Assembly (NCBI GenBank): GCA_048939465.1
Contig: JBHLPL010000010.1
Span: 1 to 28,226 of the forward strand
From: Promethearchaeota archaeon
GTDB taxonomy: Archaea; Asgardarchaeota; Odinarchaeia; Odinarchaeales; JBHLKK01
Length of the DNA stretch: 28,226 bases
Reading direction: 5' to 3'
Position 1 is the stretch's first letter. Each line of letters starts with the position of its first letter. This document shows, in pieces, positions 17,206-27,730 of the stretch. Under the pieces are notes generated by a model. That model did not search any database, had not been told where the DNA came from, and saw nothing but the letters and a program-made list of their open reading frames with translations. Made by a program: the position numbers and the translations under genes.

Positions 17206-17646
17206 ATGCCTGTCGTAGCAATTGGAGAGAAACAAGCGAAACCTGGCACAGAATTCATGTTTAGTGATTCGTTTGAAGAGTGTAAGAGTTGTGATCTACG
17301 CCGAATATGTGTAGGTAATCTCGAACCCGGGCGTATTTATGAAATAATCAGAGTGAAGAAAAAGAAACATTCTTGTAGTCTTTATGAAGGGGGGATCGTT
17401 GTTGTGGAGGTTGAAGAAGCAAGGATTAAGGCCATAATTGATGCCAAAAACGCTTTTGAAGGCGCCACCATAACACTAAGATTGCCCACGTGTAAGCAGC
17501 TCTCCTGCAACTATTATGGGCAATGTATTCCAGATGGGCTTTATGATAACGACAGAATAAAAATCATTAAGATATACAGTAAGAAAATTGATTGCCCGCA
17601 AGGTCGACGTCTGAAATCAGTTCAGCTCAAGAGATCTTCTTTTTGA
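17206..17646 (+). CDS. UPF0179 family protein
   Basis: EC..C.LR.IC..NLEPG..Y, C.LYEGG, second Cys cluster; SD GGAG. Confidence 0.8.
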   Translation: MPVVAIGEKQAKPGTEFMFSDSFEECKSCDLRRICVGNLEPGRIYEIIRVKKKKHSCSLYEGGIVVVEVEEARIKAIIDAKNAFEGATITLRLPTCKQLSCNYYGQCIPDGLYDNDRIKIIKIYSKKIDCPQGRRLKSVQLKRSSF

Positions 17647-18344
17647 AAAGTTTCCACAAAAGATATGGTCTCAATCGTAGTCAGAAATCTTCCAATGTCT
17701 TTTGCAATTCCCCTCTTAACAAACTGTATTCCCTCAAGAAACATAGCATCTTTGGGAACGTCTATGTTTGCTTTTCTGTTCTTTACATCGACTTTGAAGT
17801 TCTCTATAGGAATATCGATTATCCTCCGCTCTATTAGAGCCTTTATTTTATCTATTACTCTCGTAAGTCTCTTTTTGACGGTAACCTCATACACCAGAGT
17901 CTTTCCAGCCAGCGGGGGGTTATAGTCTACACGGACCCTGCCCCCGCCAACGCTAATCACTGTGCCCCTGCGCGTACCTATTTGAACGCGCATACCAGGA
18001 CGGGGTTTAACATCCTGTCGTCTAAATTCTCTGATGGATAGAACTTTGATAGCGCTTGGGTCTCTTTTTCCAAATCCTTTCTCGGGGACGACTTCAATCG
18101 TTTCTGTCTGTCCGAGTGCTAAACCTTCCAGTGCTTCATCCAGCCCTTTGACAACCCATCCTTCCCCGATTATGATCAAACGAGGTTTGTATGTCGTTTC
18201 TTCAGAGAACACATTTTCTTTCTTGGCAACATCTTCCAAGGTAACATCAAAAAGATCATTGGTTTCCTCTACCCGCCCAATTAAATCTGCCAGTATGAAA
18301 TCCCCTTTCTTCAGGGACCTAACATCGCTTTTTGATTTTGTCAA
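17622..18344 (-). CDS. Long FKBP-type peptidyl-prolyl isomerase (SlyD-like)
   Basis: GEGWVVKGLDEAL, PEKGFGKRD, VRVDYNPPLAGKTL, plus the archaeal C-terminal extension. Confidence 0.9.
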   Translation of the reverse strand: MTKSKSDVRSLKKGDFILADLIGRVEETNDLFDVTLEDVAKKENVFSEETTYKPRLIIIGEGWVVKGLDEALEGLALGQTETIEVVPEKGFGKRDPSAIKVLSIREFRRQDVKPRPGMRVQIGTRRGTVISVGGGRVRVDYNPPLAGKTLVYEVTVKKRLTRVIDKIKALIERRIIDIPIENFKVDVKNRKANIDVPKDAMFLEGIQFVKRGIAKDIGRFLTTIETISFVETFQKEDLLS

Positions 18345-18488
18345 AGATAACCACCTACAGAAGCCAATTTACAGAGGTTCAACGGAAAGATCTGATGTTA
18401 AGCTTAAGTTTTAACTTTATCGGCCGAAAGGGCCTCCGCACGAACTCCTCCTGCAGTTTGCTATAAAGGCCTACAGACAGTGCTTTAT

Positions 18489-18709
18489 GTTCTTCTCCGT
18501 AAGAAGACTCCAACTGAGGGGGTGAAGGCGGATTGCGAGGAATAAGATGCTTGGTTTTACGACAGACACGTGGAATTGAGTCGAGGTAGCACTCGCCGAT
18601 TCGTAAACACAGAGTTTCAGGGCAGGAACTGTCCGCAGAGCCAGTAAGACATATCCCGCTGGGAATGGAAGAAGCAGGAAGCTCCGCCCAAAAGGACGGA
18701 GTAGTTCAC
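18489..18709 (+). mobile_element. Non-autonomous miniature IS200/IS605 derivative (221 bp): left end + omega-RNA-like scaffold + right end, no ORF
   Basis: Preceded by TTTAT; left end aligns with 25974ff; 18616-18709 is 81/95 identical to 27187-27281; ends in AGTTCAC. Confidence 0.85.
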
Positions 18710-18729
18710 ATTCTTACCACTACCAAAAA
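18616..18729 (+). ncRNA. Putative stand-alone TnpB omega/reRNA scaffold plus about 20-nt guide (5' boundary uncertain)
   Basis: Hairpins GGGCAG-GAA-CTGTCC, CAT-A-TCCC/GGGA-ATG and CTCCG/CGGAG are conserved with the tnpB 3' region. Confidence 0.6.
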
Positions 18730-18784
18730 TAAAATAAGTAGCAACGTCGAAAGAATCTCAAATATTGTCAATGGAGGAGATTTC

Positions 18785-19231
18785 TTGTCTATTACTATGA
18801 GATGGAATAGAACACCATCCATCGGCATTGCTATATTTCTTATAGGACTTGCAGGCATCGCTCAGATTCCTGCAATATTGTTTGCTCAGATCTTTCTTGT
18901 AGTCAACAGTGAATACCTGTTAGTATTGGTACCGTCAGGAGTGACTCTGGTTTTATCTGCAGCCGAGATACTTCTAACCGAGACACTGATCCGCAGGAAG
19001 AAAGGCAGAAGAAAACAGCTGTTCGGCTTTGCTCTAAGAGCGTCTTTGGTTGTTCTAGGAATCTTTTTTGCAATATATTTTCTGCCATTTGCACTCAGCT
19101 ACGTTCTAATTCCCCCAGAGCCAATAAGAACTCTTTCTAGAGCTGCCAAGTTCGTGATTGTGATAAACTCAGCGGCCATAACAACTGCAATCGTAGCTTC
19201 TATTTTTGAGCTTAGCTCCAGGACTAGATAG
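18785..19231 (+). CDS. Hypothetical membrane protein (about 4 TM); start TTG 18785 or ATG 18797
   Basis: Four hydrophobic segments with a basic RRKKGRRK loop; GGAGGA 6 nt before TTG 18785. Confidence 0.6.
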   Translation: MSITMRWNRTPSIGIAIFLIGLAGIAQIPAILFAQIFLVVNSEYLLVLVPSGVTLVLSAAEILLTETLIRRKKGRRKQLFGFALRASLVVLGIFFAIYFLPFALSYVLIPPEPIRTLSRAAKFVIVINSAAITTAIVASIFELSSRTR

Positions 19232-23567: not shown

Positions 23568-24752
23568 ATGAGCAGGATAGACATAGAATCCGCAGAGAGA
23601 GTCAAGAAAATCCCAAAGTACGTATTCGTTGAGATAGAAGAACTTCTCAAGAAGAGAAAACGGCGAGATGCAATAATCTCGCTGAGCATTGGTGACCCGG
23701 ACCTTCCCCCTCCACAATTCGTGCTAGATTCACTCGTTAAAGAAGCAATGGATCCGAGGAATCATAAGTATCCGACCTCTGAAGGCAATCTAGAGTTCAG
23801 AGAAGCGATTGCAAAATGGTACAAAGGTCGCTTTGGGGTGTCTTTGGACCCTGAAACAGAAGTTAGCGCCCTAATAGGATCAAAAGAGGGGTTATCCAAC
23901 GTCATTCGAGCGTTTATCAATCCAGGAGACCGTGTTTTGGTTCCGGATCCATCTTATCCGGTTTATGCTCATGGCGGTGCAGCCCTATGTGATGGTATAC
24001 CGGTGTTTGTACACCTTCGCGAAGACAGTGATTTTAAACCAGATCTTTCAAAGACTAATTCCGAAGAGGCGCGGATGATGATTTTGAATTACCCCAACAA
24101 TCCTACTGGTGCCACTGTGGATAGATCATTTCTTAAAGAAGCAGTTGAATTTGCCTTAAAAAACAATTTAATCTTGGTCTACGATAATGCATACTCCGAG
24201 ATAACTTTTGATGGATATACCGCACCAAGCATCTTGGAGATTGAAGGCGCAAAAGATGTTGCAGTTGAGTTTAATTCTTGTTCAAAGACATTCAATATGA
24301 CCGGAGACAGAGTCGGCTTCGCCATGGGAAACGAAAAAATCATAGAGGCATTGAAAAAAGTCAAATCTCAAATTGATACAGGAGTTCCAATATTCATCCA
24401 AAGAGCAGCAACGGTGGCGTTGGAGAGCTACAGAGACGGTCGGCCTCCTAGACCTGTAGAAATAACCAGACAAACATACAAAGAAAGAAGGGACATTCTC
24501 CTCAAAAGACTGAGAGAAATGGGATTCAACCCAAAAACGCCGAAGGGTACATTCTATGTTTGGGTAAATCTGGGTTACGAATCGATGGAATTTACTAGGA
24601 AAATGATAGATGCAGGCGTCGTAGTAGCACCAGGTGCGGCATTTGGGAAACATAGCTGGAGTTATGTACGTTTTGCACTTACAAGACCGAAATCAGAGAT
24701 AGAAGAAGCGTGCGATCGAATGGTAAAAGCCTTAGAAAAGGTTCAGAATTAG
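23568..24752 (+). CDS. dapL: Class I/II PLP aminotransferase, LL-diaminopimelate aminotransferase-like; likely ATG 23568 (frame open from 23454)
   Basis: IPKYVF, SLSIGDPD, LIGSKEG, LNYPNNPTG, YDNAYSE, SKTFNMTGDRVGF; AGGAG SD before 23568. Confidence 0.75.
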   Translation: MSRIDIESAERVKKIPKYVFVEIEELLKKRKRRDAIISLSIGDPDLPPPQFVLDSLVKEAMDPRNHKYPTSEGNLEFREAIAKWYKGRFGVSLDPETEVSALIGSKEGLSNVIRAFINPGDRVLVPDPSYPVYAHGGAALCDGIPVFVHLREDSDFKPDLSKTNSEEARMMILNYPNNPTGATVDRSFLKEAVEFALKNNLILVYDNAYSEITFDGYTAPSILEIEGAKDVAVEFNSCSKTFNMTGDRVGFAMGNEKIIEALKKVKSQIDTGVPIFIQRAATVALESYRDGRPPRPVEITRQTYKERRDILLKRLREMGFNPKTPKGTFYVWVNLGYESMEFTRKMIDAGVVVAPGAAFGKHSWSYVRFALTRPKSEIEEACDRMVKALEKVQN

Positions 24753-24756
24753 GATT

Positions 24757-24891
24757 TGGTGCGGCTGACGGGACCTTCGTGGAAGTAGAAAAACTTCCAA
24801 TTCGAACCCGTGTTATTGGCTTTCTGACAAGTCCAGGATATCTGCATTTGTTGGAAGGCCAAGGTCCTAGGCCAGACTAGACCACAGCCGC
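24757..24891 (-). tRNA. trnG-TCC: tRNA-Gly(TCC) with two introns: 30 nt at 37/38 (24822-24851) and 27 nt at 59/60 (24774-24800); CCA encoded
   Basis: GCGGCTG/CAGCCGC-ACCA, TTGGC-CTTCCA^A-GCCAA, T-stem ACGGG/CCCGT. Perfect BHB at 59/60 (TTCG/CGAA; TGGAAGT/ACTTCCA). Confidence 0.93.
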
Positions 24892-25107: not shown

Positions 25108-25812
25108 TTAATATGTGGCTTTCGAAAATCTCTTCTGGGAGAGTTTGATAGCCTCTTCGTACGTATACGCTATCCTTGCAGCCACCACCCAAGAGTCCAG
25201 AGGCTCTACATCGATCGATAGTTCCAGATCTGCAAGTTTCCTTGTCCGGGAACTGAAATCACCGTGAGGAAATCCTCCTATAATCACTGCGATGTCTTCT
25301 CTCTCTTTCAGTTTGTCAGTGAGTTCCTCCACAGTTGTCGGAATCCCACCTTCACTAAATAACAGTGTTTCTTGTGGCCTTATGTGCTCGATTAGCTGCT
25401 GAAGGGACTTGCGTTCAAGATGAATCAAAGGAGTGCCAGCTGGAGGCACTTTTCCGAACTTGAATAATTGCTCCATTAATCCGATGAATCGATTGTAGTT
25501 CTTAGGAAGCCTTACTTCAGGATTGATAAAGATGATATTGTCATCTATAGTGTGGACGTAGATCCTCAGTAATCCTGCCTTGTTCAAGGGAGTTCCCAGT
25601 ATTGATAACAAGCAAAAATGAACGATGTCAGGTCTTCCGCGCTTCTCACTGTTAGGAATGCTACTAAATAAGGTATGGTGTAGGGATACGTCAAGGAGTA
25701 AATCACTGGGATTCTTCTTCGTTCTACGGGCCTGATTCCTTACAGAAGGATGGCTCCAGAACCGAGGGGGGATAGGTTCGAGACCAGACTCAACCAACAG
25801 AAAATGCAACAT
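25108..25812 (-). CDS. nep1: 16S rRNA N1-pseudouridine methyltransferase Nep1/Emg1
   Basis: LLDVSLHH, RGRPDIVH, RLPKNYNRF.GLMEQL, IGGFPHGDF, PLDSWVV. Confidence 0.95.
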   Translation of the reverse strand: MLHFLLVESGLEPIPPRFWSHPSVRNQARRTKKNPSDLLLDVSLHHTLFSSIPNSEKRGRPDIVHFCLLSILGTPLNKAGLLRIYVHTIDDNIIFINPEVRLPKNYNRFIGLMEQLFKFGKVPPAGTPLIHLERKSLQQLIEHIRPQETLLFSEGGIPTTVEELTDKLKEREDIAVIIGGFPHGDFSSRTRKLADLELSIDVEPLDSWVVAARIAYTYEEAIKLSQKRFSKATY

Positions 25813-25973
25813 TTCGAAGACCCTCTAGAGGTAAAACAATTACGAACAGTTCTTGGCCTGCTTCATCTTGTTCTGGGTTGCTTTTTATCGTACGAAATGC
25901 AGGACCCAGAACGGCATCTTACATTTCGGTCCTTGTCAGCAAGTTGACGACATATATCTGTTGAGCAATTTAT

Positions 25974-27281
25974 CTCTTTCTCCGCAAAAAGACTCCATCC
26001 GAGAGGTGGTGATGAATTGAGTTGTCTTTAAATGATTTCTTGATGATTAAATCTTGGACGAACTTAAAAAATCCCGGAAATAGGTTTGAGAGATGAACCG
26101 CACCTACAAATATCGCTTATACCCGACCAAACAACAAGAGACTCTTCTTACTCAATGGCTTAATACCTGCCGTGCGTTGTACAACAACTCGCTTGCAGAG
26201 CGAAGGCAAGCGTGGAAGACTAGCAAAAGAACAGTCACTTACACTGAGCAGGCCAACCAACTGAAAACCGCAAAGAAGACCAATCCACACTTAAGGAAGG
26301 TTCACTCACAGGTTCTTCAAGATATTCTAAGAAGACTTGACAAAACCTTCAAGAACTTTTTCAAACGGATCAAAATGGGAGAAAAGGCAGGCTATCCACG
26401 ATTCAAAGGAAAAAACAGGTATGATTCCTTCACCTATCCCCAAAGCGGCTTTGCCCTCAAAAAGAAGAAGCTTACCCTATCAAAGATCGGTAAAGTAAAC
26501 ATTAGACATCACCGTCCTATCCCGTCTGAAGGAAATATCAAGACCTGCACGATTAGGCGTGACATAGACCACTGGTACGCGTGCTTTTCTGTTGAACTTC
26601 CCGAGGTCAAACCTTCCACCACACCTTTTCTACGAGAAGTGAGACAGATTGGTGTGGACGTTGGACTTAAGAACTTGTTGGCACTAAGCAGTGGTGAGAT
26701 TGTAGAGAATCCACGCTGGTTTAGAAGGACTGAAAAAAAGCTGGCGAAAGAACAAAGGAGTCTCTCACGCAAAGAGAAGAGGTCAAATAACCGTGAAAAG
26801 CAGCGGATCAAGGTGGGACAATTACACAGAAAGGTGCGCAATCGGAGAAATGACTTCCACCACAAGATTAGTAGAGAGTTGGTCAACACATACGACCTGA
26901 TCGTGTTTGAGAATTTGACGATCAAAAACATGGTAAAGAATCCACATCTTGCCAAGTCCATTGCTGACGCAGGGTGGGGACAGTTGATACGGTTTACCCA
27001 GTACAAAGCGGAGGAAGCTGGTACGCGGGTGGAGTGTGTCAATCCGAGGGGTACAACCCAAATCTGTAGTAGGTGTGGGAGTGTTGTTTCAAAAACCCTT
27101 GCAGTACGCGTTCATGAGTGTCCCTATTGTGAGCTCACGCTGGATAGGGATGTTAATTCTGCGATAAATATTCTGAACCGATCGCCTTCAGGGCAGGAAC
27201 TGCCCGTAGGGCCTGTAAGACATATCCCGTTGGGGAATGGATGAAACAGGAAGCTCCATCCGAAAGGGCGGGGCAGTTCAC
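25974..27281 (+). mobile_element. IS200/IS605-family element, tnpB-only (IS1341-like), 1308 bp
   Basis: TTTAT target 25969-25973; left-end hairpin CTCCATCC-GAGA-GGTGG with AAGA at +16..+19; right-end hairpin CTCCATCC-GAAA-GGGCGGGG preceded by GAAG; terminal TCAC. Confidence 0.9.
26093..27244 (+). CDS. tnpB: RNA-guided endonuclease TnpB
   Basis: N-terminal YKYRLYPT, RuvC GVDVG / VFENL / DRDVNSAINI (D-E-D intact), Zn finger CSRC/CPYC. Confidence 0.95.
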   Translation: MNRTYKYRLYPTKQQETLLTQWLNTCRALYNNSLAERRQAWKTSKRTVTYTEQANQLKTAKKTNPHLRKVHSQVLQDILRRLDKTFKNFFKRIKMGEKAGYPRFKGKNRYDSFTYPQSGFALKKKKLTLSKIGKVNIRHHRPIPSEGNIKTCTIRRDIDHWYACFSVELPEVKPSTTPFLREVRQIGVDVGLKNLLALSSGEIVENPRWFRRTEKKLAKEQRSLSRKEKRSNNREKQRIKVGQLHRKVRNRRNDFHHKISRELVNTYDLIVFENLTIKNMVKNPHLAKSIADAGWGQLIRFTQYKAEEAGTRVECVNPRGTTQICSRCGSVVSKTLAVRVHECPYCELTLDRDVNSAINILNRSPSGQELPVGPVRHIPLGNG

Positions 27282-27301
27282 ATAAGAGTCTTGACTCTCT
27301 T
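27187..27301 (+). ncRNA. Putative omega/reRNA 3' scaffold plus guide of the tnpB element (5' boundary uncertain)
   Basis: Overlaps the tnpB 3' end and right end; GGGCAG-GAA-CTGCCC hairpin; conserved with 18616-18709. Confidence 0.7.
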
Positions 27302-27409
27302 CTCCAGTTTTCACAACGGAAACTAAATCTTGATTAATGAGCAAAACCTTGTTATGATAACTTGAACCTACCGATAGTCTCAATATCCTATGCGTTACGG
27401 GGCGATTCC

Positions 27410-27730
27410 TTGTCAAGACGTGGCCGATCGAATAGACGTATCCGAAAGATTGCAGAGGAGAGAATGAAAATACTACTTAGGAAGGCAGAAAGAGCAGTCG
27501 AGAATAGGAAAAGAGTTCAACGATACGTAGAGATCGCGAGAAGAATAGGAAGAAAATGCAAAGTCAGAATGCCTTCAGAGTGGCGTAGACGCATATGCAG
27601 GGGCTGCAACTCCTTTCTTCAACCAGGTGTTAGTTGTAGAGTGCGTCTGAGACAAAGACGTGAAGCGCACGTAGTAGTCACATGCTTGATCTGTGGAAGA
27701 AGAACAAGGTTCTTGACGAAAAGAGAGTAG
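27410..27730 (+). CDS. rnp4: Ribonuclease P protein component 4 (Rpp21); likely TTG 27410 (track start 27362)
   Basis: IAEERM..L, RYV.IARRI, ICRGCNSFL.PG, VTCLICG...R. Confidence 0.92.
   Translation: MSRRGRSNRRIRKIAEERMKILLRKAERAVENRKRVQRYVEIARRIGRKCKVRMPSEWRRRICRGCNSFLQPGVSCRVRLRQRREAHVVVTCLICGRRTRFLTKRE

Follow-up and report, generated by a model that had tools for sequence, protein, structure and literature searches.

IS200/IS605-type elements inserted 3' of TTTAT in an Asgard archaeon and the TATA-like appearance of their rebuilt target sites

The window analysed here, a stretch of 28,226 nt from an Asgard archaeon, carries two insertions, a gene-less mini element and an element with a tnpB gene, each lying directly 3' of TTTAT. 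When the flanks of either insertion are joined, TTTATAT is rebuilt, and the rebuilt octamers, TTTATATT and TTTATATA, fit yTTAWAWa, the TATA core of this genome. The original prediction was that each insertion divides a working TATA box, that the TTTAT motif biases insertion into core promoters, and that excision restores these promoters as a reversible switch. The question is whether such elements are aimed at promoters or only share a short motif with them. The two TTTAT/AT joints alone (slashes mark junctions throughout) are unremarkable, because AT comes next at 12.5% of the intergenic TTTAT sites.

Boundaries of the two insertions and their empty counterparts

The mini element and its neighbours have the following positions in the window.

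17622-18344, minus strand: gene for an FKBP-type peptidyl-prolyl isomerase, divergent left neighbour of the mini element (Pfam FKBP_C, FKBP26_IF and FKBP26_C)
18484-18488, plus strand: TTTAT target of the mini element and its probable TAM; no other left flank is as common in the family
18489-18709, plus strand: mini element, a gene-less IS200/IS605 derivative (PATE) of 221 bp with a left-end hairpin and a GTTCAC terminus
18710-18729, plus strand: right flank ATTCTTACCACTACCAAAAA, which a guide RNA of TnpB transcribed from the mini element would carry, following the published TnpB mechanism (PMC10055086)
18785-19231, plus strand: gene for a small hydrophobic (membrane) protein, with TTG at 18785 after the Shine-Dalgarno sequence GGAGGAG; conserved in the congeneric genomes G001 and G002

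In the window the junctions of the mini element read cagtgcTTTAT/gttcttctccg...ggagtagttcac/ATTCTTACC, also spelled as cagtgcTTTAT/gttcttctccgtaagaag...ggacggagtagttcac/ATTCTTACCAC, and its joined flanks give GCTTTAT/ATTCTT. The start codon TTG 18785 stands 75 nt after the joint, and no Pfam family was matched by the small hydrophobic protein in a Pfam search. The element contains no ORF, while near-terminal palindromes at both ends and a guide-RNA scaffold at the right end are retained. It shares about 50 nt of left end and about 110 nt of right end with the tnpB element, and its right 110 nt have 85% identity to the 3' end of that element, where the guide-RNA scaffold lies. DNA folding placed a hairpin in its right end (z -2.0), and the left-end folds were weak. 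The mini element is present in the strain of metagenome run X3, as seen in its contigs. In G001 and G002, which are about 77–79% identical to the window in the genes of this region and are free of the element here, the DNA is uninterrupted at the orthologous position and aligns across the joint, the rebuilt site GTGCTTTAT/ATTCTTACCAC corresponding to GTGTTTTATATCTTAGTACGAC in G002 and to GTGGTCCATATTTTGTTACCAC in G001.

The spacer between the FKBP and membrane-protein genes has a further peculiarity in G002, where about 570 extra bases (L011, about 2350-2950) look like an additional reverse-strand gene. They lie at the position which the mini element has in the window genome, and G001 has nothing there, so this spacer accepts large insertions.

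The second locus is made up of the following features.

25108-25812, minus strand: nep1, for an EMG1/NEP1 methyltransferase (Pfam PF03587, E 9e-58)
25969-25973, plus strand: TTTAT target, and probable TAM, of the tnpB element, from the junction sequence and the empty allele
25974-27281, plus strand: tnpB-only IS200/IS605 element (IS1341 type) of 1308 bp, polymorphic between natural strains and ending in GTTCAC
26093-27244, plus strand: tnpB, 383 aa (Pfam HTH_OrfB_IS605, OrfB_IS605 and Cas12f1-like_TNB, the zinc ribbon)
27282-27313, plus strand: right flank of the tnpB element, its predicted guide target; 32 nt in the window and 35 nt in the empty allele
27410-27730, plus strand: rnp4, for the RNase P Rpr2/Rpp21 subunit (Pfam PF04032)

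The junctions of this element read gagcaaTTTAT/ctctttctccg...ggggcagttcac/ATAAGAGTC in the window, also spelled as gagcaaTTTAT/ctctttctccgcaaaaag...gggcggggcagttcac/ATAAGAGTCTTG, and its joined flanks give CAATTTAT/ATAAGAG, the joint itself reading TTTAT/ATAAGAG. The two joints, rebuilt from the window sequence, and the FKBP, membrane-protein, nep1 and rnp4 genes around them, checked by Pfam and start positions, agree with what the original prediction had described. A comparison of the window with G001 and G002 gave TTG 27410 as the start of rnp4, which is ATG in G001. A decayed older element had also been considered after 27281 (CTCTTCTCC...AGTTTTCAC), and was dropped; the end profiles gave no match there.

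A natural empty allele of the tnpB element exists. Contigs from metagenome runs X3 and X5, which belong to the independent studies P3 and P5, pass from position 25973 to ATAAGAGT with no element in between and return to the window sequence at 27314. They have exactly the rebuilt joint, so that the precise restoration of the empty site, which had been expected of these elements, is seen in natural alleles. In the same runs the depth of the flank in the empty allele is 8–20, against 2–4 for the interior of tnpB. Moreover, the predicted guide target differs between the two alleles, since 27282-27313 and its counterpart in the empty allele are separated by 7 substitutions and a 3-nt indel, whereas the surrounding DNA is about 99% identical, with 8 differences in 811 nt on the left and 2 in 487 nt on the right. 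Both versions of the patch contain a small hairpin (AGAGTC..GACTCT and AAGAGT..ACTCTT, respectively). Because of the 7 substitutions and the indel, the empty allele is not a fresh excision product of the window copy. This speaks against a promoter switch, although an insertion that is polymorphic in nature and has an exact empty allele is what a switch would need. In a 1% sample of the raw reads of run X17, which shares its study with the probable source sample, no read mapped to the window.

Elsewhere in the window, at the 3' end of an aminotransferase gene (24317-24881), two contigs are found in run X3 and two in run X9, and in each pair they differ from the window at 2 and 53 positions, respectively. 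The divergent haplotype is sharply bounded, which suggests recombination between lineages.

The element family and its target code

Both insertions belong to the IS200/IS605 type, as had been proposed; this is shown by the Pfam TnpB domains of the long element, by the ends which the two share and by their TTTAT target. The closest natural solved match of the TnpB protein is ISDra2 TnpB (8EXA, E 1e-60), and of the named records that contain a similar TnpB, a Hodarchaeota MAG is the nearest. The Asp-Glu-Asp triad of RuvC appears intact (GVDvG, vfENL and DRDvN), as judged by eye from the printed alignment to 9yyg, a close designed TnpB homologue.

In the genome from which the window comes (G000, an Asgard archaeon assembly of 1.96 Mb in 152 contigs), about 62 paired elements were inventoried with end profiles and curation. 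The group to which the two window elements belong, defined by the left end cttcttctccgcaagaag and its variants and the right end GTTCAC, has size classes of 47, about 220, 300–350 and 1308 bp, plus one copy of 1849 bp. This last copy (C105:997-2845) encloses the sole Y1 transposase gene (TnpA) of the genome (C105:1180-1545, PF01797, 126.7 bits). In this group 22 copies lie 3' of TTTAT, and TTTAC, TCTAT, TTCAT and TTTGT account for most of the others. The 22 left flanks of the TTTAT copies show no target duplication. Terminal inverted repeats are absent, and both ends have subterminal stems of the CTCC(A/G)NCC-GAAA-GGNNGGAG type. Furthermore, the tetranucleotide of the left end covaries with the target, AAGA going with TT(AT) in a ratio of 19:4 and GAGA with TC(AT) in a ratio of 10:3 (Fisher p=0.0009). 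This covariation indicates that the transposition machinery reads the left flank only. In the IS608 work, a guide tetranucleotide of the left end reportedly specifies the target in the same manner, and the left flank alone is said to be read. The target of IS608 is TTAC, and that of ISDra2 is TTGAT.

These features are those of known systems. The subterminal hairpins, the fixed target of 4–5 nt, the lack of a duplication and the exact empty site are the same as in IS200/IS605 elements of the IS1341 type, ISDra2 and IS608, and the HTH, RuvC and zinc-ribbon domains are those of ISDra2 TnpB, the Y1 TnpA being located elsewhere in this genome. What sets the elements apart from ISDra2 and IS608 is their Asgard host and their TTTAT target, with no difference in kind. 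Two papers describe the same motif: TTTAT flanks the left end of solo-tnpB elements in Sulfolobus islandicus (PMC10640517), for which it is the published TAM, and that of ISGst2 from Geobacillus stearothermophilus, for whose TnpB2 it is an experimentally verified TAM (PMC10055086). By analogy with these elements, the TnpB of the window would use TTTAT as its TAM. As for the mini element, the PATEs of Haloquadratum walsbyi (PMC3119063) are likewise ORF-less with palindromic ends, and PATE-like minimal elements of G. stearothermophilus that encode guide RNAs (PMC10055086) resemble the mini element with its right-end scaffold.

Several other groups of copies were noticed. About a dozen elements of only 47 bp consist of the start of the left end, one hairpin and GTTCAC, and are found 3' of TTTAT (for example C73:16331-16377, C23:1999-2045, C77:37742-37788 and C88:7414-7460). 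These single-hairpin copies are a difference from the PATE systems compared here and may approach the smallest mobile unit. A second IS200/IS605 family, with the left end ctaaaccacctcaaggag, the right end GTTTAC and a length of about 300 bp, is inserted 3' of TTCAT (for example C139:3766-4065, C23:2084-2383 and C61:18115-18414), which is also the motif of ISGst5 (PMC10055086). Since TTCAT is ATGAA on the other strand, several copies of this second family abut predicted start codons at distance 0. In addition, the three species of the genus have in common a 223-bp mini element that is followed by one and the same flank (..GTGTACTAGTATGGTAACT; G000 C59:248-470, L021 about 1388-1611 and L024 about 1390-1611), so that this insertion is old and shared; in G002 the original TTTAT target has decayed to CTTAT. 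A DNA search of 7 genomes of the class found the family only in the three genomes of the genus and not outside it.

Rebuilt sites and predicted promoters

All promoters named here were predicted with a home-made gene caller and an EM-derived matrix, and the comparisons cover 22–24 sites. The gene caller combined hexamer coding scores with a ribosome-binding-site term and was run on the genome with the elements cut out. GGAGG stands at -14 to -8 before start codons, TTTAWA is about three-fold enriched from -85 to -45, and EM on 925 upstream regions gave cRaAA-n2-yTTAWAWa, with a peak of the TATA core at about -68 to -43. The caller set the start of nep1 wrongly and missed rnp4, so that all distance statistics are approximate, with an error that is equal for occupied and background sites. 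The best candidates near three of the four neighbouring genes are the following.

18405-18422, minus strand: best BRE/TATA-like candidate of the FKBP gene, CGATAAAGTTAAAACTTA, core at -71; top PWM match in its spacer (4.93)
18723-18740, plus strand: BRE/TATA-like candidate of the membrane-protein gene, CCAAAAATAAAATAAGTA, core at about -55; PWM score 3.08; intact, downstream of the mini element
27342-27359, plus strand: BRE/TATA-like candidate of rnp4, CAAAACCTTGTTATGATA, core at -61; PWM score 3.91; intact, 60 nt downstream of the tnpB element

At the mini element, the candidate box of the FKBP gene is intact and lies 66 nt to the left of the insertion point, and the same box at -71 scores 4.9–5.2 in G001 and G002. 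The box of the membrane-protein gene, CC(G/A)AAAATAAAATAA, is kept in both of these genomes as well, with scores of 3.2–3.9 at -54. The two boxes thus flank the element, one on each side, and are found in all three species, which means that in the element-free relatives the neighbouring genes have conserved candidates at -71 and about -55, respectively, apart from the rebuilt site. The rebuilt TTTATAT of the mini element is located at -80 from the start of the membrane-protein gene, which is within, but at the edge of, the TTTAWA-enriched zone of -85 to -45 and to this extent agrees with a role as a promoter; its score, however, is 0.3–2.5, and the motif, retained in G002 (TTTTATAT), is lost in G001, where it reads TCCATAT and the boxes at -55 and -71 remain intact.

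The site of the tnpB element is less clear-cut. After excision the rebuilt site TTTATATAA would be separated from rnp4 by 131 nt and from nep1 by about 160 nt, which is outside the usual zone of 45–85 nt. On the other hand, no BRE/TATA match anywhere in the nep1-rnp4 spacer scores higher than the rebuilt TTTATATAAGAGT (4.52), which counts in favour of a split promoter and against an ordinary insertion; in detail, the rebuilt site AGCAATTTATATAAGAGT scores -0.6 in the TTTAT register and 4.5 in a shifted register, where 4.5 is also the median best match of promoters. The candidate of rnp4, CAAAACCTTGTTATGATA, resembles by eye the TTTTATAGGATATTTG box (TTTATA) found at -72 in the relatives, although the two are not confidently alignable. 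In a scan of the relatives themselves, the TTTTATAGGATATTTG box was not ranked for rnp4; its highest score was obtained on the minus strand, where it would be a candidate of nep1 at about -94. An alignment of the nep1-rnp4 spacer was attempted, and it has diverged too far from the relatives for orthology at the base level. The matrix scan of the window found no convincing promoter candidate for nep1 elsewhere in the spacer. This missing candidate is the weakest point in the reading of these elements as ordinary insertions, and nep1 is the gene for which real promoter use is most conceivable. For the FKBP gene, the membrane-protein gene and rnp4, intact and better-placed candidate boxes exist, and the claim that working TATA boxes are split by the insertions is not supported.

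A separate matter is the junction to the left of the inserted tnpB element (25964-25981, minus strand). It contains AGAAAGAGATAAATTGCT facing nep1, with a BRE/TATA-like score of 5.25, which is above every minus-strand match in the rebuilt empty spacer. Half of this sequence comes from the end of the element and half from the target, and it could be a hybrid outward promoter, as predicted from the matrix score at one copy; the filled junction of the mini element scores only 1.6. In this the AGAAAGAGATAAATTGCT junction would resemble the hybrid promoters of bacterial IS elements.

Whether TTTAT directs insertion into core promoters can be judged over the whole genome. After excision of the elements it contains 5,681 TTTAT sites, 25% of which are intergenic, and 1,424 of these intergenic sites are free. 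All but one of the 22 occupied sites (21/22) are intergenic, which is expected because selection acts against gene disruption. The 22 occupied sites were compared with the 1,424 free intergenic ones as follows.

Joint 40–85 nt from a start codon, either side: occupied 8/21; free intergenic 33%
Full BRE/TATA score, fixed register: occupied median 0.19; free intergenic median -0.45; p=0.13
BRE half alone: occupied median -2.15; free intergenic median -2.86; p=0.32
Joint inside best predicted TATA core, any score: occupied 5/22; free intergenic 20%; p=0.46
Joint inside predicted TATA core, score 4.5 or more: occupied 2/22; free intergenic 13%; p=0.80
AT content, +3 to +20: occupied 0.630; free intergenic 0.627; p=0.50
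AT content, -20 to -6: occupied 0.586; free intergenic 0.621; p=0.89

In this comparison no promoter measure showed an enrichment of occupied over free intergenic TTTAT sites, and upstream of the occupied sites there is no BRE. A bias of the motif towards core promoters, as proposed, is therefore not seen, and a handful of copies in high-scoring predicted cores, such as C137:8599-8824 with a score of 6.2, are what can be set on the other side.

The one positive signal came from the bases that follow the joint. Among 24 independent TTTAT insertions of the genus, which include both discovery sites and three copies from the congeners, A comes first at 13/24 against a background of 0.30 (p=0.012), and AT at 8/24 against 0.125 (p=0.007). 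This could reflect a mild but real preference for TTTAT sites that continue with A or AT, as an extended target or through easier melting or pairing, with no regulatory role, and the three independent copies of G001 and G002 are in line with it, all of them (3/3) having A at +1. It is also something that targeting by the left flank only does not predict. However, without the two discovery sites p is about 0.05 (an estimate, not calculated), and the excess becomes marginal when it is further considered that ten positions were tested. Moreover, in other Asgard genomes and metagenomes, 27 unique copies of related tnpB elements have A at 8/27 and AT at 4/27, which equals the background of this genome, although their own background composition may differ. 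These loci were found via the TnpB protein, and their right flanks were used for the bases after the joint only, many left ends being unrecognised. The AT content of the flanks also equals the background, and target recognition by IS608 reportedly reads the left flank only. We therefore regard such a preference as unlikely. With regard to the original prediction, the bases after TCAC are close to random across these copies, with a mild excess within the genus only.

A probable origin of the TATA-like sites and what it means

Taken together, these results are best explained if both elements are ordinary IS200/IS605 insertions, one of the IS1341 type and the other a PATE-type mini element, whose TATA look is a side effect of the target motif, and we hold this to be probably the case. 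The single Y1 TnpA on C105 would move both elements in trans by single-strand peel-and-paste. In the transposase complex, the tetranucleotide 5' of the left-end hairpin would pair with the final bases of the flank on that side (AAGA, for instance, with TTAT), and since the target would be chosen by this pairing, insertion would occur 3' of (T)TTAT whatever comes next. A copy that lands in a gene is lost, and those that remain accumulate between genes, where TTTAT is frequent; one reason for this is that the motif makes up half of the archaeal TATA consensus. As a consequence, some rebuilt sites resemble TATA boxes, and of all intergenic TTTAT sites 13–20% fall in predicted TATA cores. An additional aiming at promoters is likely to be absent. 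Both window insertions are placed between divergent genes and outside the better-placed candidates.

The right end of such an element would be transcribed into a guide RNA, the last 16–20 nt of which would be the flank after TCAC, and the conserved scaffold at the right end fits this arrangement. TnpB with this guide RNA would recognise TTTAT and the adjacent flank, and would cut the empty donor joint after excision, whereupon recombination would restore the element; donor-joint cutting and restoration of this kind are described in PMC10055086. Because TnpB would cut the empty donor joint, retention of the element would be favoured over switching. We infer the transposition in trans and the activity of TnpB with its TAM by analogy with the systems described above, and the identity of the working promoters is likewise predicted.

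The contrary reading is that TTTAT/AT sites are working TATA boxes, that insertion turns them off or rewires them, that excision turns them on, and that the guides are promoter sequences. The rebuilt TTTATAT at both joints speaks for it, and so does the fact that the site of the tnpB element is the best matrix match in its spacer. Against it stand the genome-wide comparison, the state of the boxes in the relatives, the distances at the tnpB site, the empty allele, which is 7 positions and an indel away from the filled flank, and the homing by TnpB, which would oppose element loss. In the light of the promoters predicted here and of the composition of the flanks, the central inference of a promoter switch is not supported, and we consider it very improbable.

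A more speculative thought concerns the hypervariable patch beside the tnpB element, which could be the mark of a conflict that TnpB has with its target in natural populations of Asgard archaea, where empty alleles might escape cutting by mutation of the target, or cutting and sloppy repair might leave scars. Likewise, 2–5 of the 22 copies, those in strong predicted TATA cores, could act as on/off promoter alleles. We would give little credence to these ideas.

No link between TTTAT and TATA boxes is made in the excerpts of PMC10640517 and PMC10055086, and a literature search found no paper that connects IS605 elements with TATA boxes. TTTAT TAMs and PATE-type mini elements are already published, and the elements described here add ordinary members to a family already known. 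If a switch were true, the target motif of a transposon would at the same time be a means of reaching archaeal core promoters, and the TnpB guides would form a natural promoter library. The comparisons make this unlikely and suggest instead that elements which seek TTTAT meet TATA-like sites at the rate expected from the distribution of TTTAT. The gains are modest, and consist of an inventory of IS200/IS605 elements in an Asgard archaeon together with their target code, and of a polymorphism between filled and empty alleles which fixes the boundaries of an element to the base. A further gain is a genome-specific BRE/TATA matrix with a profile of promoter distances for an uncultured Asgard archaeon.
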